Assembly: GCF_011745625.1 (NCBI RefSeq)
Contig: NW_027191499.1
Span: 62,001 to 126,000 of the forward strand
DNA length: 64,000 nucleotides
DNA from: Cladosporium halotolerans
Taxonomy: Eukaryota
Direction: 5' to 3'
Shown here: piece by piece, positions 26,548 to 55,010 of the stretch
Position numbering within the stretch: the stretch's first letter is position 1
How the letters are laid out: every line of letters starts with the position of its first letter
Translations under genes and position numbers: made by a program
The notes under the pieces: generated by a model
The model's database searches: none
Seen by the model: only the letters and a program-made list of their open reading frames with translations
Told to the model about the DNA's origin: nothing

Positions 26548-28166
26548 TCATCTCCGCCTCCTAATCCCCACCCAACACTCTTCCGGCTTCTTCGAAAACC
26601 CCTCCCTCGACTCCAACACCTCCTGATACAGCTCGAAATCATACCGCCTCAGCGCCGTCGCCACGATCAACGACAACTCCATCCGCGCCACATTCTGCCC
26701 CACGCACGCCCGCGGCCCGTAACTGAATGGATTGAAGCAAATGTTCTGCCGTGCTGTCAGGTTGCCTTTCAGCCACCGGTCAGGCTTGAACTCTTCTACA
26801 TCCGTGCCCCAGACTTCGGCGGAGTGGTGGATCGTGTAGCTTGGGACGGAAAGCACGGTTCCGGGCGGGAAGACGGTTTCGCCGTACGCGACGCCTTTCG
26901 GCGCCGTGACTATACGAGGCAGGCCCAGTGCGGAAGTCGAGTGTAGGCGCATCGCTTCGTCGATGTACCGGCGGAGAAGAGGGAGGTTCTTCACTTGCTC
27001 GAACTTGGCGATGGCGGCGTCGGCGGGGATGGCGGCGTCCAGTTCGGCGAGAAGGGGTGCGATAATTGTTCCTGGTGCGGCACGCTCGCCGGCTAGGATC
27101 CAGTAGAAGATCGCGCAGGCTGTGTTGGAGACGGTATCGCTGCCGGCGATCAACTCGGTCAAGGCTTCGGAGATGAGCTCATCGCGTGGCATCGGGGCAC
27201 CAGAGGAGTCGCGGGCATCGACGAGCATTTGCAGGATGTCTCGTCGGCGAGAGGAGGATTTCGAGCTGCCCTCGGCGGCGCTGAGACGTTTGTTGACGGC
27301 GACCTTGGCGATGCCGTGCAGGTTGCGCACGGATTGGAGGCCTTTCGAGAAGAATGGATCAGGTAGGTATTTTGCGAACGGTCGTAGTGCCGGGAGGAGC
27401 CCGAGAGTCGAGCTGACTTCCCCTCGGCGGTTCAAGGTCTCCGCGCCTTTCGTCAAGGTGACGGGATCGTCTGGATGAAGCTGCGATTCGCACTCGTCTC
27501 TGCCTTTGGCTACCATGCCGAATGGAGCGCCGAAAGCAAGGTCTCCGATGACATCGAATGCGATGTACGTACACCAGGGCATCATGTCCAGCTTGGCGTG
27601 ACTATGACTTGGTCCAAGGTGTTCAGCGATGCGATCCAGCTGGCCGACCCATCGGCGAAGGTTCTCGGACATATGATCCTCAAATGCGTGAACCGCCCCA
27701 GGTGAGAAGGCATGCGCTATGATCTTGCGCTTGCGGCTGTGCTCTGTACGGTCGCGGACATTGAAGACGCCTGGGACGCCAGAGACGAACGCTTCATAAT
27801 ACCTACTGGCTTAGACATCAGTGCTGCGCAACAGACGCACATGCATTTCGGGCTCAACACTTACTCTTTGAGGAAGCCATTCCCGTGAGCATACACAGTA
27901 TGCAAGCCCTCGGGCTCTGCGATCGATACATGGTTATACCCAACCCGTACGATCGGCCCGTACTTCTCATGCGCCCGGTGCACCCAGGCGAACTTCTTCC
28001 CTCGTCTCGCCCCAATTGCAAGCCAGATGTTGCTGAACTTGGCGAGAAAAGGACCCGGAATGTCTTGAAGATGCTTGTAGGTCTTCACATATGGTAGAAG
28101 ATAGTAATGTATTGATACGACCACAAAGCAGATCGCAGCAAAACTCCAACCGCTGAGCAGCGCCAT
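26548..28166 (-). CDS. Cytochrome P450, CYP53 (benzoate 4-hydroxylase)-like
   Basis: N-terminal TM, IPGP, FNVRDRTEHSRKRK, FDVIGDLAFGAPFGM, LNRRGEVSSTLG, AGSDT, EAMR and heme motif FSYGPRACVG. One intron near 27803-27864. Confidence 0.9.
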
Positions 28167-33502: not shown

Positions 33503-35163
33503 CTACATGATTCTCCAATCGTTCTCCCGCTCCCAAGCTGCGGCAACCTGGTACACCGTCCTTTCGCCCCACCACCTGCCGATCACCTGCATTGACACCG
33601 GCAGCTTCACTCCCGCTGCTACTCCCGGCCCTTCCAGCACCTCCAACATCCCGATCGGCATCGCCAGCACCGGATGCCCAGTTTGGTTGAACGGCGCCGT
33701 GTTCGCCGTCAGCCCCACCTGCTTTGCAATCTGCTCCAGCGGCTTTGCGTCCGCCGCAGCGTGGCTTGTCGCGACGTACGGCAGCGTAGGTGTGAGCAAC
33801 ACGTCGAACTTCGAGAGAGCCGCGTCGTAGGCGTCGCGCAGCTTACGCGAGAGGTTCGTCGCTTTGCCCAGCAGGGCTGGGAAGGTCTGGGTCGCGTACA
33901 GGCCGTTCAGGTAGATGTTCTTCGTCGCGCTGTACGCTGCCTCCCAATTCTCTTGCGTCATGGGGTGGAATTTGCAGTTCAGTTCGAGCATCTGGTGCCC
34001 TCTCCTGCCGAAAGCGCCACTGGCTTTGGACAGGAATCCGCCGGGTTTAGAAATCCCGGTCCAGATCGCGGCGCCTTGGGAGTGCATGGGTATTGAGACT
34101 GAGGTGACGGCTGCGCCTAATGCTTCGAAGCGGGATGCTGCTGTTTGGAAAGTCTCGACGATGCGATGATCGGTTGCGGGCGTTGAGAGACTCTCGGTGA
34201 TGATACCGATCTTTTTGCCTGCCAGAGGTTTCCATGAGGCGAGAGAGTCGATTGCTTCGGTGTAGTCTGGCAGGTTGGAGGGCGTGGGTGCGCCGAAGCT
34301 GCGGTCGTCGATGTTGTCTGTTCCTGCGATCGCTTGAAGTAGGACAGCGTTGTCGTGGACTGTTCTGGTCATGGGCCCAATGTGGTCATTCGTTGGCTCA
34401 TTGCTCGCACAGCCTGTATACGGCACGAGCCCGAACGTCGGTTTGAGCCCGACGATCCCACAGTTGGCGGCTGGTACACGGATACTTCCTCCTTGGTCCG
34501 CGCCGATGGAGCCCCAGACTTCTCCCAGGGCGACGAGCACGCCTGAGCCGCTCGAGCTGCCCCCTGCGCTGTACCCTTCGCAGAAAGGATTCTCGACGAC
34601 GCCTGTGCCGGAGGAGTGGCTGGTGGCGGAGTGGCATAGATTTTCGCATACCGCTTTGCCGATGATGTGGCCGCCTGCTTCGAGGATGCGCGTCGCGACA
34701 GTCGCATCTATATCAGGGACATAGTCGCGGATGAAATTGGAGCCAAGTAGCATTGGTACGCTTTTGACGGAGATCATGTCCTTGAGAGCGAGCATCTTTC
34801 CAGAGAGTAACCCTGTGCGCTGCGACTCCGTATCCTTGACGGAACACTTCCATGCCCAGGCGCCGTGCTTGTTCTCTGAGGAGTTGGGATAATGGATGTC
34901 TTCTCGGGGGAATCTAGCTTCGTCTACCGAGGGCACGTAGTCTGTGGACGATTTAGCAGGAGACCCGGGAGGCTCGATGACTCTCCGCACATACCGTCCA
35001 TTTCCATCAACGCTTGACTCGCATCGTGGAAGACTGCAAGCAGCTTTTTGTAATCGTCTTTCTCGTCATCTGGTAGCGTCACCCCAAGGTTGGAACAGAG
35101 CTTGTCTACTGTCCCCAGAGTCACAGGATTTCCTCGGGCGGTTTCGAGAGAGAAAACGGACAT
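33503..35163 (-). CDS. Intracellular amidase-signature enzyme
   Basis: LKDMISV, GKAVCENLC, GGSSSGSG and GADQGGSIRVPA. Intron 34942-34994. Confidence 0.92.
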
Positions 35164-35315
35164 CTTGACGAATTGTTCTCGAAGTTTGGCTAACTCTGCT
35201 GAGCACCATGTCCACGAAAATACTTTTCGCGCGCTTCTCTACGACGAAAACCCCGTAAGCATTGTTCGTGCTGCAGGCCAAGGGCCCTCCTGTTCAATCG
35301 GCGAGTCTCGGTCCT

Positions 35316-35604
35316 TGATAAGCTTGCTGCACAGCCATGGTCTGCAGATGCGGATATGTCATCGTCGCTGCATGTATCATGCGCAATCAACTCTCAAACG
35401 GCCTACTTTATCACATTGATGTGTCGTAGGCCGAAAATAGCAGGCCGGAAGTCAGAAGCCGACGTCGGCACAAAAACGCCCGACGGAGATAATTGACCAA
35501 GCACCTTCCCAATGCATGGACGGGGTGGCCTATCGTGAACCCTGCTGTATTCTTGTTGCAGTATCTACTGATAATGCATGAGGCTCTGCGCAGGCAATCG
35601 ATAA
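35316..35604. promoter_or_regulatory. Cluster of HGATAR (AreA/Nit2-type) sites in a divergent promoter
   Basis: Sites at 35316, 35408, 35487, 35530, 35569 and 35599. Confidence 0.55.
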
Positions 35605-35781
35605 TCATCTCCCGATGGCAAGATGCGCCATGCCCCCACACATCATTCACGCACTCTTACGAGTGGGGCAAGTTGAAAGGCTGTAGTGGGCTTGTTTGGT
35701 TCGCACAACTACTTCTCAAATTGCTTGCGTTGTTATTCGATTCGAAGGACTGTATCTGAGAAAGGGAAGTTTCTGCTCACA

Positions 35782-36886
35782 ATGGTACATGTGGAAGAGT
35801 TAATCCAGTTGCCGCGCGATTTTGAAGGTTCGAGCAGCTTCGCCGGAATCGACAAATGAAAGCTCTAAGAACTGACCGTATGAAGGCTTCGGCGAACATA
35901 GCCATGATCCGAAGTGGCCTAATGGCGCCCGCATTGCGGTGTCTTTTGTTCTCAATTATGAGGAGGGCGGGGAGCGCAACGTTCTGGACGGCGACGCCAC
36001 GTCCGAGCCGTACCTATGGGAGAAAGGTCCCTCGGGTGGTGGCCGAGAGCACCGTCACCTGAACGGCGAACAAGACTTTGAGTACGGCAGTCGCTGTGGT
36101 GGATGGCGTATTGCAAGACTGATGCAAGAGTTTGGCTGGAACATGACAATCTTCGCCGTTGCGGTCGCAATGGAGCGCAACCCGTCTTTTGCGAAGGCTT
36201 GCGTGCGCGAGGGTCATGAGATTTGCGCGCACGGGTATAGGTGGCTTGACATTTGGGACTACGGCCTTGAAGAGGACAAATCTTACATCAAGAAGACGCT
36301 GCTAAAGCTCGAGGAGGTCACTGGCGAATTCCCAGATGGAGCTTACTTTGGTCGTGGGACTCCAAACACAGCGTCACTTCTGCCTGTGGTGTGGAAGGAG
36401 ATGGGTAGATTGATGCTGTATACCTCGGAAGTCTATAACGATGACGTCCCCTACTGGATTGATCACCCGTCCGAGAAGGACTTGCCCAATGAGGAAAAGG
36501 AAGGTCTGCTCATGGTGCCCTACAACTATGATTGTAAGTCATGACGGCCACTCAATTGCAACAATCAGTACTGACAATAAACGTTTGAAGGTAACGATGG
36601 GAAATTCCACATGAGCCCTGGCTTCACCAGCTCGGCCGGCAACACTTACGAGGCATACCTCAAAGATGCTTTCGATTGTCTCTACCGCGAAGGTGCAAAG
36701 ATGATGACCATTCCTCTCCATTCACGGATTACTGGCAAACCAGGAAGATCCGAAGCGCTGCGAAAGTTCATGATGTACATCTCGGAGAAGGAAGGTGTTT
36801 GGGTTACTACCAGAAGAGACATTGCGAAACACTACCGCTCGACCTTCCCTTACAAGCCGGGCTCTAGAGCTGGTGGTGGAAGTTAG
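35782..36886 (+). CDS. CE4 polysaccharide-deacetylase-fold hydrolase, PuuE allantoinase-like
   Basis: PRDFEG|FG..WPNGARIAVSFVLNYEEGGE, FEYGSRCG, HEICAHGYRW, YNDDVPYW, PYNYDC|NDGKF and MTIPLHSRITGKPGR. Two introns. Confidence 0.88.
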
Positions 36887-37416
36887 CTTAAAGATATTCT
36901 TTAGTCTTGTGAGGGGCTTACATTCGGGAATAGCATGCGTACGTGTGATGTTCAATACGACCGTGTTGTTGGCTCTTCATCCACGATTTTGCCTTTCTGG
37001 CGCCTGTCACTTCTGCAAAGCAGCCCTGGCAGAGAGTTCGTTCTTCTTGCTCTCCTGCACCTTTCTACCCCATCTCTGATACTAGATAAGACATCCATGC
37101 GCAAAACACGATGCCAAGCCAGACTAGATCCATGCATAATGATGTGCTGCGTAAGCGACTGCGACATTATCTCTTTGCTATCAGAGCAATCCGCAATCGC
37201 GAGCCTTGGCGCTGTCATCTGCAGCGAAGCACTGATGATAGGCGATCAACTTCTCCCATTGGACTGAGGGATCGGGTCTCAGTCCCGTCTACTTTCACTG
37301 TAACCCTAAAACCCTGTCAAGGGTCCTTGCATCCCTTATTGATAGACGAGAGTGTGTCTCCTCTGGTAAATCTTTGAGACAATCTCTGACTCTTGCATCT
37401 GCCATCTTTATCATCT

Positions 37417-39262
37417 ATGGCACTCTTCGAGAAGAGCAGATTGGTCTTTGCATCCAGGAAAGATATCAAAAATGTACTTGTGGCCGACGGTGCCCCTACG
37501 GAAGGTAAATCGCGACATAACAAGGACTTGCTCCCAACGCCACCCCAGGACCGCACATGGAAATGGACTCACTACTTCGCTTACTACTTGACGTCCACTT
37601 TTTCACCAAGCGGATACAATCTCGGCGCCTCGCTAATTAGCATGGGTCTCCTGTGGTGGCACTGCATGATCGCTGCCGTCATCGGCAGCGGTATACTCAC
37701 CGTTGGTGTCATTCTGAACTCGCGAGGAGCTGCAAAGTACTACATCGGTTTTCCTGTCTATGTTCGCGCAGCAGCAGGAATTAGAGGTGCCAGCCTATAC
37801 ATCCTGGTCAGAGCCTTGGTTGCGACGATCTATTTCTCTACACAGACATACTACGGTGGGCGGCTGCTGTCTGTCTTGATGAGAGCAATCTTTGGGAACG
37901 GGTATTACAACATCCCGAACCATTTGCCAACGAGTGCGGGAATAACCTCGAGAGATCTACTCAGCTTCTTCATCTTCTGGATCGTGCGACTAAGCATTCT
38001 CCCTCCTTGTCACAATCATTGCTAACCGCTTCCAGATTCAATTTCCGGTCATGTTCATCCACCCAAAAGTACTGCGGCATTTGTTTGTCGTAAAGGCAAT
38101 TTATACGACCATTGCTTTGTTTGGAGTACTGGGTTGGGCTATTTCCGCCAATGGAGGAACTATCGGCGATTTCAGCTTCGACACAGACAAACCCCGTTTA
38201 TCCGGCACTGCGCTCATCTGGCCAACGATCTCGGCCATAAACTCGGTAATGGGTGCCCTGGCGCCTCTTTTGGTGAATCAGCCTGATATTGCTAGATATT
38301 CCAAGTCCTTCACTGCAACGACATGGTCACAGGGCTTAGGGATCCTCTCTTCGAAAACGCTCGTGATGTTCCTGAGCACAGCAACGACATCAGCAGCCAC
38401 AGGGGTTCTGGGAAAAAGCTACTGGAATGTATGGGACCTTTACGATGCTATACTTACGAGATACTGGTCTCATGGAGCAAGGGCGGGCATCGTGTTCAGC
38501 TCATTCGGAATGATTCTTGCCACGATTAGTGAGTTCGCTCTTCAAATTTACCTTCGTGATGGCAAGTTCTGACAATGCAAACACCCAGTCACCAACGCTG
38601 GATCGAATTCTCTTCCCGTTGGCGCAGACATCACCGGCATCTTCCCGAAGTGGCTCACAATTGTTCGTGGGCAGTGTCTATGCGCCATTCTAGCGCCTCT
38701 ACTGGTTCCCTGGAAGATAATCGCCAACGCGACGAGCTTCCTTACTTTTCTAGGAAGTTACACCGTCTTCCTTATGCCCATATGCGCATCAATGATCGTG
38801 GACTACTGGATCATCCGTAAAGGCAATTTCCACATTCCATCTCTCTACGTGTTGCATCCGGAAAAACCGTACACTTACTACAAAGGCTGGAACATTCGCA
38901 TGCTGCTCGCTTGGGTGAGCGGCATTGCATTTACCGTTCACGGTATAGCAGGCAGCCTGAATCCTGGCTCCGTCAACGTCGCTAGCACCAACATGTATAA
39001 GCTTGGCTTTGTGCTCAGCTTTCTGATGGGAGGGTTCGTCTACTATCTACTAAGCCTCCTGTGGCCACCAAAGATCTTGCCCAGCATCGATCACCACTCC
39101 AGCGTATCAACCTTCGAAGCGTTGGCTGCTAATGAGGGTTTTTTCGAAGATGAGACTCTTACGAATATTACTGGTGAGCTTCCAGCCGCCGGGAGCGAAA
39201 CCGAGTCCCCAATCGAAATTATTGAGATGGATCACGTGAAAGGCGCGCATAAAATGGCGTGA
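37417..39262 (+). CDS. NCS1 nucleobase/allantoin permease (Fur4/Dal4 family)
   Basis: NKDLLPTPPQDRTW, IGFPVYVRA, NQPDIARYS, LVPWKI and DYWIIRKGN. Two introns. Confidence 0.92.
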
Positions 39263-39414: not shown

Positions 39415-41436
39415 TCAATTCGGTGCATTGGTTTCTCTGCCATTGTATATCTTTGACCCTGGTAGCTTCTCCCAAGGTGCAAAAACATTGGTCTTCGTCG
39501 CCAGTGTGGCTTTCAACTCCGGAAAGTGTCGCCCCAACACATCACGCATAGTAGTATTCTGCACCCACTCGAAACCTTCTTGGGTGTACATCTCCGGATT
39601 CCAACTTCCGGCTATGAATCGATCGCTCTTCAGACGTCGACTCGCCATGAGAATGAAGATTCTGAACGCTGTGTCACTGAACCCGAAGCCTTGCGGCAAT
39701 GGTTCGCTGTGAGATCCCACCAGAGTGTCAACTTTGTTGATGTCCCCATTGTAGATCTCGCTGAGCTTCGCTGCCAGTTGTTTGTTTCCGCCTGTCAGCT
39801 CTTCGAAGGTCTTCGGAACTGTCATGCGAAGCAAGCGGCGGAAGGTCGTGTAGCGAGGGACTCCACGTTCGCGATCGCGCAGGATATCGACCGTACCCAT
39901 GTCCCGCAGCTGGTTGTCGGGTGTGTTGAGGCGCTGCATGACAGCAGGATAGTTGTTATTTGTGATGGCTCCTGGGTAGTTGATGCCAAAGGAGTAGAAT
40001 GCATCGGCAAAGGTCGCGCCAGCTTTTATCGGGTCGAGGGATTTGTTGAAGATGACGCTCTCTGTTGGGACAGTGCTCTTGTGCCTTCCGTCCACAGCGT
40101 CAAAAAGGGCGATGTTGTCTGGTGTTCGTCAGCTGCATGGATCTGGAGGCTGGTGGTGCAGCATTACCTGGGACCAATGAGTGCATCCGATAGACTGAGA
40201 CAAACTCCTCCGTCAAAGAATATGGTATGCCCTGATGGTCGACGCCAGAGCCCGGGATACCACTGATAGCTTCGCTCGTCTTTGAGATCCGTCCGACTGC
40301 CTTCGTAAGCTTTTCACCAACAATGCCCCACCAATTAGCGTTCATGCCGATTTGAAGAGCGGGATGTGCCAGAATGGCGGGTGTCCATTCGACGGTGTGG
40401 ATCTTAGCTAAGAGAGCGCAATTAATGATGCGAGCTTTATCGAAAATTTGATCACTGTCTAAGGTCAGCATGCATTGAGTAAGATCGATCCAATAACCTA
40501 CCCTGTCCAGCCAGGGTGGCCTTCGCGTATCTTGTCACAGATGGCATTGTGTTCGAGGGCGAAAAGCGTATGCAGAAGCTCGACGCCCAGCCACCAATTG
40601 TCGCTGAATCCAGTCTTGGGCGTGCCATCTTCGTTGCGTGGAAGAAATCGGTCCTCCTTCCCAACCTTGTCCAACATGAGCTTGCCATGCGGGTGATTGT
40701 TCCGAAGTGCCTTTGTGACGGCCTCGCTCGACCCGTAGATCTGTGACCCATCCCACCAAGCGGTGTTGGCGTTACGATATCCGGGGCAGTGCTCGTCTGA
40801 CATATCTAAGATACCGTCGGGCTTGGTCTGGAACAGTTTTATCTTGCCGGATGGCCACTGGTCACCTGGTACGAGGGGAACGTCATAGGTCTCGTCGCTC
40901 TGTCTTGGTCAGCTTTGCTACACTCGAACGTTTGTTGATGGTCTCACGATCTCATGGTTGAACCAGTCGTGAACCTGGAACTGAATCCATGCTGCGGCCA
41001 GCAAATTGAGGGTCGTCGCCGGTTTAAACTCCTCTGGCCTCCTTGCCATGAAAGCCAGACTCACCAGTCTTGGATTTGGGTTCCAAAGGTCGTCTTCGGT
41101 TGGCTTTTGACAGTACTTGCGGTCAAAGTTGCGACCAAATCTCATTCCTACGCACCCCATCTTTCGTAGCTCGAGTGAATTGTCTTGGCCGTCTGAGTTG
41201 CGGGTCCCAACGTATCGTTGCTCTGACGCTGACAGGGGTCCCAGTTTGCCTTGAGCATCTGCAGAGGCGTAACCATCGTGGAGATTGTAGTTGCGCAGCT
41301 CTATTCGAAGGAAGTCTAGATTGAACGCTCCAATTACACCCGGAAGGCGATGCCAGGGGATGAAAAAGTTGATGACTCGGAAGATCCTGATGAAGAGCCT
41401 TTCGAAAAAGGCCGGCTTGAAGTTTGGTGACTCCAT
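39415..41436 (-). CDS. Fatty-acid alpha-dioxygenase-like heme protein (peroxidase-cyclooxygenase superfamily), 4 exons
   Basis: AAAWIQFQVHDW, NTAWWDGSQIYG, AKIHTVEWTPA, PYSLTEEFVSVYRMHSL, RDRERGVPRY and FILMASRRLKSDRF. Confidence 0.9.
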
Positions 41437-42035
41437 GGCTATCGGTCAGTTTGACTCTCTGACAAGGCTCTGTCTGTTGTGGAGTATTGAGACTTTTGAT
41501 TCCAAACACAAACCGAGAAGCTGGAAGTATTCGAGTAGGCAGAGACTGATCGATCCGGGAGACCCTGCATTACATCTGCAGAAGCTGAACTTCAGCTTTC
41601 ATCTCCTTGCGCTACCGTCGGTACGGTCACGAAACCTGAAGGATGCACATGAGCAGGAATCTCCGCACTCATGCAGTCAGCATCTGCGGTTCGTTTGCGG
41701 TATTGCCGAGTGTGGCTGCGATTTCAGCTGCGAACCTGCATTCTGCAGGCATGTGATAGGCTGAGTCGCCGCGCACGCAGCTTTGCTTCTGTCTTCTTCT
41801 GGAATAGCTCAGTTTGAATCTAGTGGTACACCAACATGCATGGTCAGCATTGCTCAACCACATGCACGTCACTCGCGTAGATACGACATGTGATGGAGTG
41901 CGTGCCACCCCTTGTCTGCTCCAGACGCTACTGAGCCCCTATCGAGCGCTTTTGCAGCGACGGCAAAATCAAGCTCTTCGGTACCACTTTGCACATTCGC
42001 ATTCCTGTTTCCATCTCGCGACAACTGATCAGAAG

Positions 42036-42809
42036 ATGCATCTGGGGGTTTTTGATCTCGTCAAAGGCCTATTTCGCCCAGTGGCAGGCGACACTGAGAC
42101 GCTGAGCGACGGGAAATCCAACCACTATTACGCTCGAGGAAGAATCCAGGATCGTGGTCCTTGTCCAGCGTTGAACGCTCTGGCAAACCAAGGCTACTTG
42201 TGAGGCCCCCCTTTCTGATGAAGCAACACTTTAGTTTTAACAACCCGCAGACCTCGCAATGGCAAAAGCATCACGATTCCTCAAGTCGAGGATGCACTGA
42301 TGACCAGCCTGCATCAAGATAAAGCATTGGCTTCGTCCATCGCTAGACCGCTGAGGCAGATTATCCACTCCGATGGCACGTTCGATCTTCACGACATGCG
42401 TCGACACAACGTCATTGAGCACGACGCGTCTCTGACTCGACTCGACGCTCGCCAAGGTGACAACTACACTTTTCAGCCGGCAATGTTGCAGGCTATGTTG
42501 GCCGATGCCCACGACGGACCGGTCACGGTCAAGACTCTGGCCAAGTCATACAATCGTCGTAAGAGAGAGCGTAAGGCGGATGGAGGTGCACCGCTCCCGC
42601 TGAATCTGTGGTTTGTCAATATCATCCAGACTGTCTCGCTGCTGAACACGGCAGACACAGGCGGCAAGCTGTCTCGGGAAGTCTTGGAGCCTTTCTACGT
42701 CGAGGAGCGGATTCCAGATGTAATGCTGGAGAGCCGCAACACTCGGACTCTGACTGGGCTCTTGATCTATGCTGCTAAGCTGATGTTCTATATTGTTCTC
42801 GATCACTAG
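42036..42809 (+). CDS. Short heme-thiolate peroxidase / unspecific peroxygenase
   Basis: DRGPCPALNALANQGYL|PRNG (PCP proximal Cys) and HNVIEHDASLTR. Intron 42200-42250. No clear signal peptide. Confidence 0.9.
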
Positions 42810-43051
42810 CTTAACCGTATCATTGCCTCGATCTGTATCTTCATTCTTCCCGAAAGCAGAAAGACAGAAACTCACGTATACTTGTCTGTGATGAGAACTT
42901 GCTGGAGACGATGCCACTGAGCAAAACCTTTCGCTGGATATCAAGGTGGCACGAGACATGCGCTTGGAATGATGCGTACAATGGGCTGTCAAACGAACGT
43001 GCTACCGCGGGGAAACGTAGAGATCCAATACATCATTCGGGGACATCCTCC

Positions 43052-44434
43052 CTAAAGACGGCCAGCAAAGACCTGCTTGAAGAAGTCATTGAGGAACATG
43101 TCATTTGGATCAAATTGCTTGCGAAGCCCCAAGAATTCCTCCAGCGCCTCCTGATCACAAGGCTTATCGTACCAGACGACTGCATTGTCGACCGTCTTGT
43201 TGAGATGCGGAATTCCGCCATGCTGGATTGCCAGCTCACCGAAGGCTTTGCGAAATTGCTTCCATTTCGGGTCTCGTGGATCGTGATGCTCGGGGTCAAG
43301 AATCATCATGTTGGAGTTCTTGCTGCGGGATAGTAAGGAGCTTTCATCCTTGTTCATGCAGTAGACAATGGTGGGTAGAGTGATTAGGAAGTCGTGCTCG
43401 ACTCGGAAGCGTTCGAGTAGCTGACGATAAGCCCGTACCATGCTTGGCCAGTTCTTTTCTGGGAACGCCCAGTCGTGGAATTCAAAATCAGGGTCGTTTG
43501 CGTCCCAAAGGATACCACGATCATTGGGATCGATGATGAACTCGCTCCCTCGGAGAGCGTCGAGAGGGCCTTTGAGGAGGAAGTTGCTCAATGCTTCTGT
43601 GTGCTCAAGGGAGAGATGCAGGCCGGAAAGAGCTTGAGCGGCCGGTAGCACGAGACTGGTGTATAAATTGATGGCTTTGCTCTCGAGCGAGTTTGTCAAA
43701 GGGTGAGGAGGACACTTTTTGACATCCTGGAACTCACGGTGTTGAAGAAGAATGGTGTCAACACTTTGGAAGATCAGGGCGAAGACCTGATCAGACGAAG
43801 CACGCACTTGCGTCATCTGGTTGTCGAAATCGCCGAGAAAATGGTAAAGATTCTGAGTCTCGTAGGTGAAAAGAAGAGACCTGGTCGGCCAAATGCGGAC
43901 GGTCACTTCACACACAACGCCGAAAAGCCCAAAGTGGGACCTGATGGCGGGCAGGTACTGCGCGTTTCTCTTCTCTGAGATTTCCAGCAACTCCCCATGG
44001 CCAGTGACCAGCTTGACGCCAACGACAAAGGAAGAGATCTGAGCGTTGTCGCTCACAGAGGTATCATTTGCGTGGGTGCCGCTGATGGCTCCGAAAAGGA
44101 AGTTGCCATACTCAAGGATGACGGGGGGCTGGTACCCAAGCGGCTCAAGGTGGCCGCAAAGTTGATTGAGGGATACGCCGGGCTGAACAGTAGCAGTGAG
44201 ATTGTCTTTGTCGACGGAGACAATTCTGTTCATCTTTTCACTGGAGATGATGATGTCGCTACCAACGAAGCATGGCGTAACGGAGTGAATTGCTCCGATA
44301 GCCTTGACTTTTGCATTGCTGGCGTGAGCTTGTCTGACTATCCGCTGGACTTCGTCGGTGCTGCTCGGCTTCTTGAACTTGGCATCGTCCACGTGAAACT
44401 GGATGGTGTCGTTCCAATTCCCAAGAGTAGGCAT
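43052..44434 (-). CDS. FAD-linked oxidase, aldonolactone oxidase (GULO/ALO)-like
   Basis: NWN..P, GAIHS flavin-binding region, GAISGTHA, GLFGVVCEVT and C-terminal GGIPHLNK..RKQFDPNDMFLN. Intronless. Confidence 0.85.
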   Translation of the reverse strand: MPTLGNWNDTIQFHVDDAKFKKPSSTDEVQRIVRQAHASNAKVKAIGAIHSVTPCFVGSDIIISSEKMNRIVSVDKDNLTATVQPGVSLNQLCGHLEPLGYQPPVILEYGNFLFGAISGTHANDTSVSDNAQISSFVVGVKLVTGHGELLEISEKRNAQYLPAIRSHFGLFGVVCEVTVRIWPTRSLLFTYETQNLYHFLGDFDNQMTQVRASSDQVFALIFQSVDTILLQHREFQDVKKCPPHPLTNSLESKAINLYTSLVLPAAQALSGLHLSLEHTEALSNFLLKGPLDALRGSEFIIDPNDRGILWDANDPDFEFHDWAFPEKNWPSMVRAYRQLLERFRVEHDFLITLPTIVYCMNKDESSLLSRSKNSNMMILDPEHHDPRDPKWKQFRKAFGELAIQHGGIPHLNKTVDNAVVWYDKPCDQEALEEFLGLRKQFDPNDMFLNDFFKQVFAGRL

Positions 44435-45088
44435 TGTCGCCGACTAGATCACAGTAATAGATTTCTTCAAGAGCAATGACCTGTTGTCATGTATGGGTTC
44501 GGCCAGCCTTTGCGGCGGCGGTAGTAGGAAAATATGGGGTTCAACAAGTTGGTTCTTAGATCAGAGTATCTTATGCGATGTGTAACGTACTGCCAACGCA
44601 TCAGATGTTCAGCTGAAGCTCTGCATGCGCAGGATGCTGCCGTTGAAGTTCGTGCTGACGGCAGACCCGTGGAGAGCTGAAGAAAAAGGAACGTATTCAC
44701 AGCTGAGTCTCGGCATGCGGATCTACATGAGGACAATCCCTATTCTGGAGCGCAATGTGGCTGACGAAATGTGGAGCTGCTCGTATGCTTCATGTGCTGC
44801 AAATTGATAAAGTCTAACATCCAGCAGGGTCAGCAGATGGTGGGCTGCAAAAATGAGTCATCAGTATAGTCTGACAGGCTCCCATGACCATCCAGGGAGC
44901 TCCTTGATAGGTAAATCTCACTGCGTCGTTTGCGGGACGCAGCTAATTAAAAGCGATTGGAGCACTGATCAACCTTCCAGCTCCGGCTGCAGGCACAGCT
45001 CGTGTGGTACGCAGTCTCTACCACTTTTACTCTCCTTTCCGTACAACGTCTTGAATGCGGCACCTTGATTACGTCGATGCGCACTCGA

Positions 45089-49828: not shown

Positions 49829-51644
49829 CTACTTAGGAGCGGACATGCCCATGTTGAAGAAAACCGCTTTCGTCTGCGTGTAGTTCTCCAATACAGCCTC
49901 GCCGCACTCCCTCCCAATCCCACTTTCCTTGTATCCGCCAAACGGTATGCTCCAGTGCACAAAATTATACATATTAACCCATGTGGTACCGGCTTTCAGC
50001 GCGCTCGTCACCCGCAATGCCCGCTCATAGTCTTTCGTGTGCACCGCCGCTGCCAGGCCGTAAGTCGTGTCGTTCGCCTGCTCGAGAACTTCAGACTCCG
50101 ACTTGAACTTGGAGATACAGACGACAGGGCCAAAGATCTCTTCGCGCATGATCTGGGACACGGTCAGCTTGTGATAGTATGCCACATGGACCGAAAGTCG
50201 ACTCGCCTTCATGTCGGGCTTGACGTCCGTGAAGATAGTCGGCTGGATGTAGTAACCGCCCTCGGTCCTTTCGATGGGCTTGCCGCCCAGGTGAACCGTG
50301 GCGCCCTCGTCAACACCGGATTTGATGTAGCCGAGGATTTTCTCGTATTGCATTTTAGAATTTTGCGGGCCTTGGTCCACGCCTTGCTGGTCGTTGGGCC
50401 CAACCTGGATAGCTTTCATCCGGGCAGTGTATTGCTCGACGAACTTGTCGTAGACATCCTCATGAACGTAGATCCTCGTTCCGGCTAGAAGAGAGTCAGT
50501 TGAAATGTCTTCGCGCAAAGCTGCTTTTTAGAAGACGTGCCATGACATGTCTGGCCAAAATTCATGTTGATGCCCCACGCTGACCAGTCCACTGCTTTCT
50601 CGATGTCGGCATCTGGAAAGATGATGTTCTGCTTCCGTCAGTTGACTGGATGCGTTGTTCAGAAATGGCCAGGGCTCACCGGCGATTTTCCACCGAGCTC
50701 CAAAGTAACCTTCTTCAAATTAGAGGCAGCAGAAGCCTTCAAAATGCCCCTCCCGGTAGCGGTCGAGCCAGTGAAGGCAACTTTGTCGACATCCATGTGG
50801 TGAGCGATGGCATTACCAACTGTTTTGCCGTACCCAGAGACCAGATTGACCGTGCCGTCAGGGAAGCCAGCTTCTTTGATGAATTGGCAGACTTTCAGCG
50901 CGGACAGCGGTGTGGCCTCAGCGGTCTTGATCACTACGGTATTGCCAGTCGCGAGTGCCGGGGCAATCTTCCACACGAACATCAGGAGAGGGAAGCTGAA
51001 TCGATACGTTAGAGCCCTCATTAGTACGCGAGGCACGGAGCGACTCACTTCCAAGGAATAATCTGTCCACATACTCCGACGGGTTCCCGTCGCGTAAAAG
51101 CAAACGTGCTCGGGATGTTGGTAGATGTCTGACCCAGGACCTTGTCTGCCCAGCCTGCGTAGTAGCGTAGGGTGCCGATGGAGCCAGGCACGTCGAGGTT
51201 GCCGGCCTGTTTTGCCGTTTTGCCGGTGTCCGCACATTCGATGGCCACCAGATCTTCAGCGTTCCTCTCGAGGATATCCGCGAGCTTGTTCAGCAGGCGA
51301 GCCCGGTAGACGGGATTGCTGTCTTTCCAAGTCTGGAAAGTCTTTCGAGCCACTCGGACAGCCTCATCCACGTCTTCTTCCCGGCCCTCGGCGACGGACA
51401 GCAAAGGCTTTCCCGTAGCAGGATTCTCAGTCTCGAACAAGTTGCCGCCTTTTGCGTTTACGAACTCGCCGCCTATGAAAAGTCCGGTAGGAACCCCGAC
51501 ACTGCGACCCCCGAAACTGATGTTCTTAGTGGCCGCTGTGGTAATAGTCCGCAGATTGGGCAGCAGGAAGCGGGAAACTGGCTGCGCTTTGGATGCGCGT
51601 GTTGGGAGAGCCCTTATTGACAGGCTTCGGACGAAGAAGGCCAT
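49829..51644 (-). CDS. Aldehyde dehydrogenase (ALDH1/2-like), probable mitochondrial presequence
   Basis: [33 protein letters not shown] and [13 protein letters not shown]. Four introns, one GC-AG. Confidence 0.94.
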
Positions 51645-51925
51645 GATGCTGGCTTGGTGCTGTAGGTGCAGGGATTCGTTGTCGAGTGCCTTCCTTGCGA
51701 GGTGCAAAACAAGGTGGAATACTGCGAGGGAGACATCTACAAGACATGGCGGAGAACATCATGACCCAATGGCCCGCCGAGGTTGGCCAGGCACAGGAGC
51801 TTTGGACAGAGAGCTTGAGTATACGGAAGATCGCTCGTTCAGACGCCATCCGGCGGGGTCTCGCTTTCCCGGGTGCCTGGACACGCTGAAGCTGGAATGC
51901 AGCTAGCCAATCAGCTGGGACCTTA

Positions 51926-52020
51926 CAACCCCTTGAAAAATCATCTATAAGAGCGGGGATTTCCGCGCTTCGCAGCGCGCGTCACTAAATTGCAGAACTC
52001 CGAGCTCTTTTCATTAATTA
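51926..52020 (+). repeat. Left terminal inverted repeat
   Basis: CAACCCCTTGAAAA...; matches the reverse complement of 55109-55203 with 5 transition mismatches. Confidence 0.93.
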
Positions 52021-52130
52021 TACCAACTTTATAGCCGGATATTCATAGTATAGCTATTCTTAAGGTATTATTACTATCGCTACTATTAGTAAGTGAGGTT
52101 ATCGCCCGTAGTATAGCTATTCTAACGCTT

Positions 52131-53102
52131 ATAGGTAGCTCCGCGATACGCGCTACGCTTATAGATACCGATATATTACTTCTAAAGTAGTTTATATTCG
52201 TTAATTATAAGCCTCTACTATAGATCGCTACGTATTTTAAGGTTAGAGTACGATCTATATATAACTAGTAGTATTACTTAGCTACGTATAGTACTCCTTA
52301 TCTACCTACGGTTATACTACGCGGCCGGCTACGTATTCTTACTACGGCGTAGGAGGAGGTATTACTACTATATCTAGAAGATCGACTAACTACGCTACTT
52401 AACGAGATCGCGCTTTTTATATAGAATCGTTACGAGCTAGTTATAACTAAGAGCGTAATCTCTAGGGTACTAAAGCGCTTATAGTAGTTATAGAAGGTCG
52501 CTAAAAAGGTCGCTATATAGCGTAATAAGCTATTACGAGTTATATAGTATATAAAGAGGCTCTAGTAGTATAATTAGTAGCTTATATTTATTAATAAGAC
52601 TACCTTATATCCTAAAATAAGCGACCGGAAGTATAGATAGAGTCTAATTAGTAGGCCTTACTACGATATAGTATTATTATATAGGGATAAGAAAGTATTA
52701 ATTTTACCTACGATAATAGTTAAAAGTTATCTATTAGATCCCTTAATTATAGAAGACGTAGTTATTATAGAGCTTTTTAAAGAATAGTTTAAGAATAAGC
52801 TCCTACTATAGCTACTATCTAATTAGGTTATAGTAATAGATAATATAGCGATCTACTACTCTAAGGTCGTAAGAGCGCTCTATATAAGGTATTATATAAA
52901 GCTATAGTATCTACCGCCTTATTCGCCGGATCTAAATCCTATTAAGTAGTCGTTTAATATACTAAAGGTATAGATAAAGAGAAACGTTAAGTAGGCTAGT
53001 ATATTTAGAGACTTCGCTATATTTATATAGTATACGTTAGCGATAGTAGGGATATAAGACGTAGAAGAATAGTTTATAAAAGTAGGTTACGAACTAAACT
53101 AA
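52131..53102 (+). pseudogene. RIP-mutated Tc1/IS630 transposase
   Basis: One frame with TAG stops reads RGRLRIL, LIFINKT (from F[IV]DET), IDN (D at 52839) and YLPPYSPDLNPIK (E at 52944 before RIP). D-to-E spacing is 34 residues. Confidence 0.9.
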
Positions 53103-53618
53103 GAAGAGTAATATTATAATTTAGTACTAATTATATACTTACTTAGTAGTTATTTTAGTTTCTTAAAGCCTTATATTAGTATTATTACTACTTAATAACT
53201 AATTAATATTTTATAGAGATTTTTTAATATATCTCTACTAATAGACCTAAAGAATTAATATTATTAATTTGGTATTAATTAGTTAACTCGTTAGTATATA
53301 ATATATATTATCCTAAGTAGTCTTAAGGTACTTTTATAGCTATAGAGCTCGCTTTAGATATATAGAACTATCCTATATCTATTATAATTAGCTACTTCGT
53401 ATAATAGAGCTACTTATTAGTAGGCTTAGTAAACGATATTTAAGTATAACTTACTCTATCCTTTTTATTATAGCTTACGTATTTTATATATAAATTAGAT
53501 AAAATTAAAACGCTAAATATATCGAAATCCTTTTATTAATTTAATATACTAAAAGTATAAATATATAGTAGTAGTATAGAATAGGAGTATTTAATCTATC
53601 TAAGTAGTTACTCCTACT

Positions 53619-55010
53619 CTAGCTTAAGCTTAATTTCTATAGCTTTATAGCTTTCCTTAGTCGCTTTCTTAAACTACCTATAATACTAATTCTCTACTAA
53701 TCGTTAACTAACGCTACTACTATAGTCTTAAGATTATTACTATTAGTCTTTAGAGCCTCTTTCGTAATATCTAGTATTCTATCTTTATTCTAGAATACTA
53801 GCTACTACTTATACTAAATAAAGAACCGATCTAACTATTCCTTTAATAATCTCTATAGTAACAACGATAGTATACGAAAAGAGCTACTAAGAGGTAGATC
53901 TATAGTAGTAGTAGCTATTATACTACCTATAGTACTAATATTAAGTATAATACTAGGCGCGATCTATTACTACTAGCTCTTTTTATAACGACGACTTCTA
54001 CTAGCTTTCTTCTTACGTTTCGCTATAAATATACTCTAGATTATCTTAGGCTATAGCTCTTTAGCTATAGTTATACTATCTCTAATCGCTTTTAACTATA
54101 CTATTAGTATAGCTTATATAATTAGAACGTAGTAGGAGGCGTTATCGTAATTACTCTACTAATAAAGGCCTTTACTATAGTTTATATATATACGCGCGTA
54201 GTATACCTATCGCTTAGTTATACTAGAGGTATAATTACTACTAGCTTTAAGCTCCTTACGCTCGCCTAGTAATATAGCGAGCGCTCTATTAGTAGCTATA
54301 TTATATAGTTATAGAGCCTATAAGGATAACTACGATTATAGTAGCGTCTATAGCGATAGTAGTAGTTCGACGATAACCTCCTTTATAGCTATAGTAATCC
54401 TTAACCTTAGATCCGACTTACTAGAGAAATACTACTACTATAGGTTACTAACTAATATAGTATAGTTAAGAAGCCTCCTATAGAGCTAATAACCTAAAGC
54501 GAGAGCTAGATAACTAGTAGTAATATCTATATCGTCTACTAATTCGATTATAGGATATTTTAGTATCTCTTCTTCGATCTATATATTAATATTAGTTATA
54601 GGATCCGAGGGCTCTACTATATTATAGCTCGCGTACCTTTACGTAATTACCTTATTCTTACTATTTCTAATAAACTACTACGTAGTATATATAAACTCTA
54701 ACGACTACTCTAACGACTACGTAGGCTTCGTAATAGGCTCTACGATAGTTATTTAACCTAACGGCGGTAGTAACGACTACGCGCGAAGTAAGTTTATTAT
54801 ACGCGTATACTAGCGAGCGCGTACGTATAGTCGTCTTTTACTATCGACGATACGACTAGTCCCTAATAGGGCTATAGTTACGCTATTAGCCCTCTTATCC
54901 TTCTTCTATACTACTCTTTTAGTAACCTTCTTAGTAGTCGGCGGAGCTATAGTAGGTAGTAACGGCAACTACGTAGATCGCGTCGGTTTTAGCGTACGCC
55001 GTAGTCGTAT
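53619..55010 (-). pseudogene. RIP-mutated second ORF of the transposon (464 codons)
   Basis: Single frame without apparent frameshifts. Internal stops are TAG/TAA, revertible to CAG/TGG/CAA. Starts ATA CGA CTA CGG CGT (from MRPRR). Confidence 0.7.

Follow-up and report, generated by a model that had tools for sequence, protein, structure and literature searches.

A conserved fungal gene cluster encoding an alpha-dioxygenase, a haem-thiolate peroxidase and a flavoenzyme, with a possible role in fatty-acid oxidation at carbon 2

Gene content and transcription of the locus

We analysed a window of 64,000 nt from Cladosporium halotolerans (GCF_011745625.1, contig NW_027191499.1, positions 62,001-126,000); all coordinates are positions in this stretch. 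The segment 39415-44434 contains three intact and transcribed genes: DOX, an alpha-dioxygenase of 625 aa; HTP, a short haem-thiolate peroxidase of 240 aa; and FADox, a VAO-fold flavoprotein of 460 aa. It runs from the first base of the DOX stop codon (39415) to the A of the FADox ATG (44434), both on the minus strand.

39415..40118, minus strand: DOX exon 4, including the stop codon (39415-39417); Arg-Arg carboxylate site; Pfam An_peroxidase 9e-39; splice joint 40118/40168 seen in X2 and X5
40119..40167, minus strand: DOX intron 3, 49 nt, GT..AG; skipped in X2 and X5 contigs, splice ends checked
40168..40454, minus strand: DOX exon 3; His311 equivalent and YRMH motif, from the alignment to 4hhr and 4kvj
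40455..40501, minus strand: DOX intron 2, 47 nt; skipped in an X5 contig
40502..40899, minus strand: DOX exon 2; Pfam An_peroxidase 6e-23
40900..40947, minus strand: DOX intron 1, 48 nt; skipped in X2 and X5 contigs
40948..41436, minus strand: DOX exon 1, ATG at 41436-41434; distal His, from the alignment to rice alpha-DOX 4kvl
41437..42035, no strand: divergent spacer between DOX and HTP, 599 bp from ATG to ATG, from the gene-model coordinates
42036..42199, plus strand: HTP exon 1; PCP haem-thiolate motif (Cys43), Pfam Peroxidase_2, without signal peptide
42200..42250, plus strand: HTP intron, 51 nt, GT..AG; skipped in an X2 contig
42251..42809, plus strand: HTP exon 2, including the stop codon; Pfam 1e-25, EHD motif, Gln in place of the acid-base Glu, hydrophobic C-terminal helix
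43052..44434, minus strand: FADox, intron-less, 460 aa, stop codon 43052-43054; Pfam FAD_binding_4 and ALO, model pLDDT 88

All four introns (three in DOX, one in HTP) have GT..AG ends, and their positions were set by contigs of runs X2 and X5 in which they are spliced out. Two runs from different studies contain spliced DOX and HTP transcripts together with contigs over FADox; these are assembled contigs, which report the presence of transcripts and give no reading on co-regulation. The three products can be aligned collinearly with annotated homologues from end to end (84% identity for DOX, 76% for HTP and 73% for FADox), and the 625-aa DOX model is collinear with homologue P0001. The layout is the one described in an earlier note on this DNA, i.e. 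DOX and HTP diverging over 0.6 kb with FADox convergent: the spacer measures 599 bp, and the stop codons of HTP and FADox lie 242 bp apart. The three family assignments of that note also agree with the Pfam matches (An_peroxidase, Peroxidase_2, and FAD_binding_4 with ALO). An ALDH gene is found at 49829-51758, 5 kb from the trio.

DOX has the catalytic residues of plant alpha-dioxygenases

The frames of all four DOX exons match Pfam An_peroxidase (E-values between 1e-13 and 9e-39). When compared with solved structures, exon 4 matched the rice and Arabidopsis alpha-DOX at 1.8e-37 and lactoperoxidase at 1e-4, a lead of over 30 orders of magnitude for alpha-DOX over other peroxidases. The structure matches of exons 1 and 3 are all alpha-DOX (3/3 each). 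Every catalytic residue of rice alpha-DOX is present: the equivalents of the distal His, His311, Tyr379, His382 and Arg558/559 are aligned and conserved. The corresponding motifs are HDW (distal His, residue 156), YRMH (catalytic Tyr and proximal His, residue 384) and SRRL (the Arg-Arg carboxylate site, residue 551). No P450 domain was detected in the 625 aa of DOX. The protein belongs to the alpha-dioxygenase family. Because its catalytic residues are fully conserved, we infer that it would add O2 at C-2 of a free fatty acid, yielding an unstable 2-hydroperoxide.

HTP is a haem-thiolate peroxidase with Gln at the acid-base position

Both HTP exons match Pfam Peroxidase_2. The earlier note had proposed that the protein lacks a signal peptide, and this holds: no hydrophobic stretch is present at the N-terminus (12-aa hydropathy at most 1.17), and residues 1-29 of an orthologue model have pLDDT below 50 and are modelled as disordered. 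The C-terminal helix is hydrophobic by hydropathy, and HTP is probably cytosolic and tethered to a membrane. The orthologue model adopts the short-UPO fold (TM 0.72-0.80), with short UPOs as nearest solved relatives. The clade is compact and distinct, with 34 of 1918 HTP representatives at E<=1e-30.

The haem-thiolate Cys is invariant (35/35 orthologues), and the clade retains both the PCP and the EHD motifs. The acid-base Glu column holds Gln in 34 of the 35 orthologues, and in none of the 35 does the helix that aligns with the Glu157 helix of MroUPO contain an acidic residue. The HMMER alignment near this column has low posterior support; its register is supported by the other HTP representatives, since Glu is the commonest residue there (36 of the 80 with a residue at that position). 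Glu is also found at this column in 2 of 10 close representatives. One helix earlier, Glu161 is invariant and could substitute for the missing acid-base Glu. The name peroxygenase may be wrong for the activity of HTP, since the clade lacks the acid-base Glu. As Gln replaces the Glu needed for H2O2 activation, HTP would be dedicated to hydroperoxide conversion, like the P450 domains of DOX-P450 fusions or caleosin, and is probably not a general H2O2 peroxygenase.

FADox is a VAO-fold flavoenzyme

The 463-aa FADox frame matches Pfam FAD_binding_4 (3e-21) and ALO (1e-9), and the Foldseek top matches of its model are GalLDH, alditol oxidase, DprE1 and cholesterol oxidase. A helical insert at about residues 250-294 has lower model confidence. 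The ALO match, the source names of relatives ('D-arabinono-1,4-lactone oxidase', 'L-gulonolactone oxidase') and the fact that aldonolactone dehydrogenases are the best solved relatives would fit a fungal D-arabinono-1,4-lactone oxidase for erythroascorbate, which could supply reductant for peroxidase-type hydroperoxide reduction or be an unrelated housekeeping gene. We regard this as very improbable. The ALO match is weak and partial (profile 125-257 of 258), identity to GalLDH is 17-19%, and the family is small, with 78 proteins at E<=1e-10, and repeatedly linked to DOX or HTP. On TIGR01678, the sugar-1,4-lactone oxidase model, FADox scores 129 bits for a cutoff of 396.8, so it does not qualify as a canonical sugar-lactone oxidase. 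Its identity to solved relatives (14-19%) is too low to infer a substrate.

The earlier note had also suggested that the locus carries its own peroxide source. FADox has a His at the covalent-FAD position, but a Leu aligns to the oxygen-gatekeeper Ala113 of GalLDH, which makes oxidase activity uncertain.

The linkage is conserved across Pezizomycotina

We used consecutive gene or accession numbers as a proxy for adjacency in most species. In 16 of the 17 species with comparable identifiers, drawn from the best-120 match lists and not a random sample, the locus tags or accession numbers of DOX and HTP follow each other directly or nearly so. These species span four classes:

Dothideomycetes: Cladosporium fusiforme, Fulvia fulva, Hortaea werneckii, Aureobasidium pullulans, Lophium, Mytilinidion
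Lecanoromycetes: Ikaeria, Kuettlingeria
Leotiomycetes: Drepanopeziza, four Cadophora species, Leptodontidium, Rhexocercosporidium
Eurotiomycetes: Exophiala xenobiotica

Cladorrhinum (Sordariales) is the sole exception, with about 135 accession numbers between the genes. In fungal-type metagenome contigs the two are adjacent in 2/2 cases and divergent, as in the window. The FADox gene number is at most three away from that of DOX or HTP in 10 of the 11 species compared (Fulvia, Hortaea, Aureobasidium melanogenum, Cladosporium inversicolor, Alternaria atra, four Clonostachys species and Aspergillus luchuensis); in Xylogone the genes are on different contigs. In Fulvia fulva all three have consecutive accession numbers, in the order of the window. 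Cadophora, Exophiala and the lichens keep the DOX-HTP pair and have no FADox among the matches listed (best 120). Hence, FADox is not essential and appears to be accessory.

As adjacency recurs across classes, the arrangement is beyond chance. The earlier note had named a linkage unique to this genome as evidence against its proposal; the linkage is instead found well outside it. One could argue that the locus is held together by a bidirectional promoter and by shared control under stress (e.g. peroxide stress) or in development, each enzyme having its own substrate. DOX and HTP do share a divergent promoter, and another HTP was reported as peroxide-induced in Chaetomium (PMC5041501). Such co-regulation without metabolic coupling is nonetheless quite unlikely, given adjacency in four classes, the compact and distinct HTP clade, and three enzymes of O2- or peroxide-linked chemistry that possibly act on one substrate series. 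The spacers point the same way. The divergent layout recurs at two other loci, L055 (543 bp) and L075 (322 bp), and no k-mer of at least 8 is common to these and the window spacer, so that no conserved regulatory element was detected. Distantly related moulds, lichens and black yeasts have kept these genes side by side, which is indicative of a pathway of fatty-acid oxidation at C-2 not described before. We found no description of the trio in the literature searched, and the earlier note likewise knew of none.

A putative pathway and its known counterparts

With moderate confidence, we read the locus as a conserved fungal cluster oxidising fatty acids at carbon 2, in which DOX acts with a hydroperoxide-converting HTP and FADox is an accessory. 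We infer the following order of steps. HTP would take the 2-hydroperoxide made by DOX as its peroxide substrate, and either reduce it to the 2-hydroxy acid or rearrange or cleave it. In part of the lineages, the window included, FADox would be a covalent-flavin enzyme of the aldonolactone oxidase/alditol oxidase/DprE1 subgroup, whose chemistry is the oxidation of a hydroxyl beside a carbonyl, and may turn the 2-hydroxy acid into the 2-oxo acid. Loss of CO2 from the latter would shorten the chain by one carbon, leaving a fatty acid or an aldehyde. On this best reading, DOX and HTP are an unfused analogue of the fungal DOX-P450 fusions and of plant alpha-DOX1/caleosin.

The plant analogy, drawn in the earlier note, is apt. 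On the lipid droplets of Arabidopsis leaves, alpha-DOX1 acts with the caleosin CLO3 (Shimada et al. 2014, cited from PMC11823117). In both cases an alpha-dioxygenase with the same catalytic residues works, or would work, in tandem with a second haem enzyme handling the 2-hydroperoxide. However, the fungal partner is a haem-thiolate Peroxidase_2 protein with another fold and a Cys ligand, and the fungal genes are clustered with a flavoenzyme attached. One may take the analogy literally. HTP would then be a true H2O2- or ROOH-driven peroxygenase, coupling reduction of the 2-hydroperoxide to epoxidation or hydroxylation of a second fatty acid; FADox would make the H2O2 that primes DOX and feeds HTP; and 2-hydroxy and epoxy oxylipins would serve as signals or antifungals. 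The conserved trio, the fold and motifs of HTP, the acceptance of R-OOH besides H2O2 by UPOs (PMC8772875), the covalent-FAD-position His that the GalLDH dehydrogenase lacks, and the plant route from alpha-DOX1/CLO3 to 2-HOT (PMC11823117) are consistent with this. We nevertheless find it unlikely, in view of the Gln in 34/35 orthologues, the Leu at the Ala113 position, and the many pair-keeping lineages without FADox among the matches listed.

The preferred reading, with HTP as a converter, is also akin to the fungal DOX-cytochrome P450 fusions (Ppo, linoleate diol synthases, DOX-AOS and DOX-EAS; PMC13049297), where a dioxygenase of the peroxidase-cyclooxygenase superfamily is paired with a haem-thiolate converter of its fatty-acid hydroperoxide that needs no external peroxide. 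The missing acid-base Glu would fit such a role. In contrast with these fusions, the cluster has two separate genes, HTP has the UPO/CPO fold, and DOX falls in the alpha-DOX clade (C-2) and not in the 8R, 9S or 10R linoleate DOX clades. MroUPO (PDB 5FUJ/5FUK) is a short UPO; it oxidises the alpha carbon of fatty acids and trims the chain by one carbon via alpha-hydroxy and alpha-keto intermediates (PMC5725704). HTP resembles it in fold (TM 0.74-0.76) and in the PCP and EHD motifs. However, MroUPO is a secreted, disulfide-linked dimer with Glu157, whereas the HTP clade (25-28% identity) lacks a signal peptide, carries Gln in place of this Glu and has a C-terminal helix that is hydrophobic. FADox shares the FAD_binding_4 fold, the ALO-type cap (TM about 0.8) and the covalent-flavin His position with VAO-family enzymes (GalLDH 8QMY, AldO 2VFR), but differs in its low identity, a score far under the family cutoff and the extra insert.

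In plants and cyanobacteria, alpha-DOX followed by aldehyde dehydrogenase constitutes alpha-oxidation (PMC10947199). Here too the 2-hydroperoxide would be expected to lose CO2 and give a shorter aldehyde or acid, and an ALDH gene lies near the trio, but the conserved partners of fungal DOX are HTP and FADox. The link between DOX and FADox is thin in bacteria, with a FADox-like ORF within 6-10 kb in 4 of 158 loci and directly downstream in 2. Bacterial alpha-DOX loci have a thiamine-diphosphate enzyme upstream in 19/78 cases and a P450 in 5/78, which fits further processing of C-2-oxygenated acids.

Gene models, transcription and layout

The three genes placed at 39415-44434 by the earlier note are all present as it described them, judging from the Pfam matches of the open frames and from spliced contigs of public sequencing runs:

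39415-41445, minus strand: alpha-dioxygenase gene (DOX), frames taken from stop to stop, four pieces that each match Pfam An_peroxidase
41808-42809, plus strand: haem-thiolate peroxidase gene (HTP), two frames matching Pfam Peroxidase_2
43052-44443, minus strand: flavoenzyme gene (FADox), one frame of 463 aa matching Pfam FAD_binding_4 and, weakly, ALO

The modelled proteins measure 625 aa (DOX), 240 aa (HTP) and 460 aa (FADox). They are collinear from end to end with annotated proteins of Cladosporium fusiforme, Fulvia fulva and Hortaea werneckii, with identities of 84% for DOX, 76% for HTP and 72-73% for FADox, which puts the source of the window among dothideomycetes near Cladosporium. All four introns of DOX and HTP (40900-40947, 40455-40501, 40119-40167 and 42200-42250) have GT..AG ends and are skipped in contigs of two runs from different studies (X2 and X5). 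Hence, DOX and HTP are transcribed and spliced as modelled. Contigs from both runs also cover part of FADox. The divergent promoter of about 0.6 kb proposed for DOX and HTP corresponds to a spacer of 599 bp, and FADox is indeed convergent to HTP, with 242 bp between the two stop codons. When the promoter of the window was compared with those of two fungal-type metagenome contigs (L055 and L075), the three shared no k-mers of at least 8 nt and three of length 7 (shuffled mean 1.36), and a conserved element was not detected.

Two other runs gave contigs of a different kind. One from an RNA library (X4; 1162 nt, 40628-41789) is identical to the window and contains unspliced DOX exon 1 and intron 1, extending 353 nt into the spacer. 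It may stem from carried-over DNA, from pre-mRNA, or from an antisense or upstream transcript, and was left out of the splicing evidence. In a contig of run X1, 106 nt of the 3' spacer between HTP and FADox (42925-43032) are replaced by 107 different letters, a difference between strains or species that falls in the convergent terminator region.

Conservation of the linkage in fungi

We used locus tags and accession numbers, which are given in gene order, as a proxy for linkage, requiring that both identifiers came from one assembly. In 16 of the 17 species with comparable identifiers, the numbers of DOX and HTP follow one another directly or with FADox as the only gene between them. They are adjacent in Cladosporium fusiforme, Fulvia fulva, Hortaea werneckii, Aureobasidium pullulans, Lophium mytilinum and Mytilinidion resinicola; in Ikaeria aurantiellina and Kuettlingeria erythrocarpa; in Drepanopeziza brunnea, four Cadophora species, Leptodontidium and Rhexocercosporidium; and in five strains of Exophiala xenobiotica. 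The species compared cover Dothideomycetes, Lecanoromycetes, Leotiomycetes and Eurotiomycetes. The sole exception is Cladorrhinum sp., where the two identifiers are about 135 numbers apart. Several contigs of 4.3-18.6 kb also bear both proteins, as judged from matching sizes. A metagenome scan with the DOX alignment, in which we kept 80 of 553 confirmed loci (78 intron-less bacterial-type and 2 fungal-type), gave the same picture: both fungal-type contigs, L055 and L075, carry an HTP orthologue divergently upstream of DOX, with exon 2 identities of 83% and 59%. The linkage of DOX and HTP is thus conserved, and not a peculiarity of this genome.

FADox is less widespread, with 78 proteins at E<=1e-10. 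In 10 of 11 species its gene number differs by at most three from that of DOX or HTP, namely in Fulvia fulva, Hortaea, Aureobasidium melanogenum, Cladosporium inversicolor, Alternaria atra, four Clonostachys species and Aspergillus luchuensis. In Fulvia fulva, the accession numbers run consecutively through DOX, HTP and FADox, in the order of the window. The one miss is Xylogone, where the genes are on separate contigs. The species in both counts were taken from lists of best matches, and are therefore not a random sample, and adjacency mostly means order of identifiers. On these synteny counts we reject chance adjacency of the genes.

The neighbours of bacterial alpha-dioxygenases

HTP was found beside none of 158 bacterial-type alpha-DOX loci, and a FADox-like open reading frame near four of them. 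In two of these (L019:9995-13187 and L009:5469-8857), a gene for a FAD_binding_4 (+ALO) flavoprotein, 24-25% identical to the FADox of the window, follows alpha-DOX at a distance of 74-75 nt and in the same orientation. In the other two (L044 and L123), the frame lies about 3.5-4.5 kb upstream of alpha-DOX.

Further neighbours were counted in loci L001-L080. An open reading frame of about 456 aa without Pfam match occurs in 29 of the 78 bacterial loci (for example L074:11788-13374 and L069:1634-3535), and in 18 of the 29 it follows alpha-DOX in the same orientation at a distance under 300 nt. It was considered as a relative of HTP and found to be unrelated (hhalign probability 0.2%). A thiamine-diphosphate enzyme is encoded upstream in 19/78 loci, which suggests cleavage of 2-oxo- or 2-hydroxyacyl compounds, i.e. 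alpha-oxidation. Cytochromes P450 (5/78) and Old Yellow Enzymes (3/78) are less frequent. The general pattern is that a fatty-acid dioxygenase is accompanied by a partner that handles hydroperoxides, and HTP is the fungus-specific form of that partner.

Another haem partner is seen at L044:5004-7826, a bacterial frame of 940 aa in which a catalase-like N-terminal domain is fused to an alpha-DOX domain. The bacteria closest to the fungal DOX clade are Saprospiraceae, whose intron-less genes give 58-59% identity (metagenome-assembled genomes L081 and L082; L001 and L002), against 38-48% for other bacteria. A transfer of alpha-DOX between bacteria and fungi is possible.

DOX belongs to the alpha-dioxygenase clade

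All four exons of DOX match the peroxidase-cyclooxygenase fold (Pfam An_peroxidase), and their sequence assigns the protein to the alpha-dioxygenase clade. The best solved relatives of exon 4 are the alpha-DOX of rice (1.8e-37) and of Arabidopsis (9e-36), with lactoperoxidase at 1e-4, while for exons 1 and 3 three alpha-DOX sequences are the only matches to solved structures at E<=0.001. The HDW, AKIH, YRMH and SRRL motifs align respectively with the distal His157, with His311, with Tyr379/His382 and with the carboxylate-binding Arg558/Arg559 of the rice enzyme (chain numbering is offset by 3 in these alignments), so that an equivalent of each is present. His311 and Arg559 are reportedly important in alpha-DOX. 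The YRMH motif, which holds the catalytic Tyr379 and the proximal His382 and was aligned to 4kvj/4hhr, is invariant in 30 fungal homologues, across which mean column identity is 68%.

Fungi also have Ppo/linoleate-diol-synthase enzymes, where a P450 is fused C-terminally to the dioxygenase. Pfam finds no P450 domain in the 625 aa of DOX, and the nearest P450 gene in the window (26548-27810) is 11 kb away. We therefore exclude that DOX is of this type.

HTP is a short peroxygenase-like protein with a probably altered active site

Our structure model of HTP was built from an orthologue, P0126 (76% identical to the protein of the window), with 34 relatives, and reached pLDDT 74. It has the fold of short unspecific peroxygenases (UPOs), with Foldseek TM of 0.72-0.80 to CviUPO, HspUPO and MroUPO at 25-28% identity. 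Together with the Peroxidase_2 domain, this fold is that of the short (family I) UPO/HTP proteins. The HTP of the window has both PCP (residue 42), which holds the haem-ligand cysteine, and EHD (residue 111); no orthologue departs from Cys43 or Glu111, and His112 is almost as constant. HTP has no hydrophobic N-terminal segment, differing in this from classical, secreted UPOs and agreeing with the earlier suggestion that it lacks a signal peptide. The C-terminus, about 17 residues, is a hydrophobic helix that may be a tail anchor; its hydropathy has a median of 1.68 over 35 orthologues.

The description as a peroxygenase holds for domain, fold and PCP/EHD motifs, and falters at the distal acid-base residue. 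We take this catalyst to be Glu157 in MroUPO, a position confirmed by counting. The HTP helix aligned to the Glu157 helix has an acidic residue in 0/35 orthologues and Gln in 34/35, with low local alignment confidence. We also surveyed this column in the best 150 HTP cluster representatives, of which 122, with lengths of 150-400 aa, were aligned to the profile. In the lower-scoring clades, Glu is the commonest residue (36 of the 80 sequences with a residue there) and 42/80 have an acidic residue within one position, whereas the 10 closest representatives with a residue there have Gln six times and Glu twice. These alignments, whose local confidence is low, give a strong hint, short of proof, that the HTP clade lacks the acid-base Glu and has Gln in its place.

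Natural fusions would be a further sign of association. Among the same best 150 representatives there are 11 long proteins, none with a DOX or FADox domain; they carry HTP repeats, ricin-lectin, tyrosinase or other domains. Three proteins of 1375-2104 aa (P0459, P0460 and P0539) have Peroxidase_2 domains in two or three copies, accompanied by a ubiquitin-like piece or by lectin repeats of the ricin type. These architectures are unusual among HTPs and not related to the cluster.

FADox is a flavoenzyme outside the sugar-1,4-lactone oxidase family

The FADox model (pLDDT 88) has as nearest folds aldonolactone dehydrogenases/oxidases, alditol oxidase, DprE1 and cholesterol oxidase (TM about 0.72-0.81, identity 14-19%), which places the protein in that subgroup of the VAO fold. 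It had been called an ALO-like flavin oxidase. The FAD_binding_4 domain, the weak and partial ALO match and His50 are in keeping with that name, but the score for the sugar-1,4-lactone oxidase family (TIGR01678) is 129.4 bits, far under the cutoff of 396.8. Hence, ALO and GULO are not suitable names for FADox.

His50 is invariant and lies opposite a Leu of the non-covalent aldonolactone dehydrogenase GalLDH. It occupies the covalent-FAD position, and the flavin of FADox is predicted from this alignment to be covalently linked. The position of GalLDH Ala113 is presumably the oxygen gatekeeper. In FADox it is aligned with Leu107, and in PDB 8qnc it is the position altered ('A113G variant'). As to peroxisomal targeting, a conserved PTS1-like C-terminus is absent across 86 DOX, 47 HTP and 63 FADox homologues; the C-terminal GRL in the FADox of the window recurs in only 4 of the 63.

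A possible pathway

A dioxygenase with a haem partner that converts its hydroperoxide is a known kind of system. In plants, the partner of alpha-DOX1 is a caleosin, whereas here it is a Peroxidase_2 protein, and the caleosin family has no match among the 41 long open frames scanned (102 listed) in the 64-kb window. What appears to be new is the pairing of DOX with HTP. In agreement with the statement that no description of the trio was known, a search of openly accessible full texts for alpha-dioxygenases in Ascomycota, or alongside peroxygenases, chloroperoxidases or haem-thiolate peroxidases, found neither pair nor trio. Alpha-DOX homologues in Ascomycota are known only from a phylogenetic tree, none of them characterised in the sections concerned (PMC8720084), and the relevant sections of an article of 2026 name only plant and cyanobacterial alpha-DOX (PMC13049297). 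For UPOs, the pertinent part of PMC8772875 states that natural functions are almost unknown, and that about 30% of the sequences have no signal peptide and no known function.

From the genes, their transcription and splicing, the conserved residues and the kept adjacency, we infer the following chemistry. We find it quite probable that DOX and HTP are functionally coupled. DOX, given its sequence, would form a 2-hydroperoxy fatty acid, the 2(R) form being the defining product of plant and cyanobacterial-type alpha-DOX. According to the part of PMC10947199 that deals with them, alpha-DOX products spontaneously decarboxylate to shorter aldehydes, so a partner capturing the unstable 2-hydroperoxide makes sense. 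HTP, if deprived of its acid-base Glu, would be ill-suited to the activation of H2O2. It could react directly with an organic hydroperoxide, as do the P450 domains of DOX-P450 fusions in the account excerpted from PMC13049297. HTP might reduce the hydroperoxide to a 2-hydroxy acid, dehydrate it to a 2-oxo acid, or cleave it in a controlled way. The nearest characterised UPO, MroUPO, is described in the portion of PMC5725704 concerned as binding fatty acids carboxylate-first and shortening them via alpha-hydroxy and alpha-keto intermediates.

The balance tips slightly towards FADox taking part in the pathway. It would oxidise the 2-hydroxy acid to the 2-oxo acid. This fits the chemistry of flavoenzymes of the aldonolactone-oxidase type (EC 1.1.3.8), which oxidise a hydroxyl adjoining a carbonyl. 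Should FADox be an oxidase, the H2O2 that it releases would serve two ends, the priming of DOX and the decarboxylation of the 2-oxo acid. The specific chemistry given here for the three enzymes is a tentative proposal that we consider less likely than not.

Equally speculative is a broader interpretation, in which the Glu-less, tail-anchored, intracellular HTP would represent a new class of haem-thiolate enzymes converting fatty-acid hydroperoxides, with the UPO fold in the role that CYP74, CYP8A-like domains and caleosin have elsewhere. Its substrate would be the 2-hydroperoxide of alpha-DOX, and the carboxylate of that substrate might act as the acid-base catalyst, as it does in CYP152 peroxygenases. 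With the flavoenzyme, HTP would form a self-priming, peroxide-recycling alpha-oxidation/oxylipin pathway ancestral to Pezizomycotina. If this is true, the third of the UPO superfamily that lacks signal peptides would gain its first natural function.

The occurrence of the DOX-HTP pair across four classes of filamentous ascomycetes, which include plant pathogens, black yeasts, lichen fungi and industrial Aspergillus and Aureobasidium, provides a concrete, testable physiological context for both families. It suggests a non-peroxisomal fungal route to 2-hydroxy, 2-oxo and odd-chain fatty acids or aldehydes. HTP would become the fourth kind of haem partner for fatty-acid dioxygenases, beyond P450, catalase-related proteins and caleosin, and its putative Gln-for-Glu variant is of mechanistic and biocatalytic interest.

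Other genes in the window

In the loci compared, the GT1, ALDH and NCS1 permease genes, considered as cluster members, had no match beside DOX except one weak ALDH in 1/80 bacterial loci; the two fungal contigs are too short to show them. Three genes flank DOX on its upstream side:

33503-35065, minus strand: amidase
35876-36886, plus strand: polysaccharide-deacetylase-family gene
37390-39262, plus strand: cytosine/purine/allantoin-type permease

Together (33503-39262) they look like a small cluster for the utilisation of nitrogen heterocycles, with no apparent relation to DOX, HTP and FADox. An AT-rich block at 51900-54700 (GC 0.21-0.38 against about 0.53 around it), devoid of long open frames, divides the ALDH gene from the genes beyond and is probably a degraded repeat.
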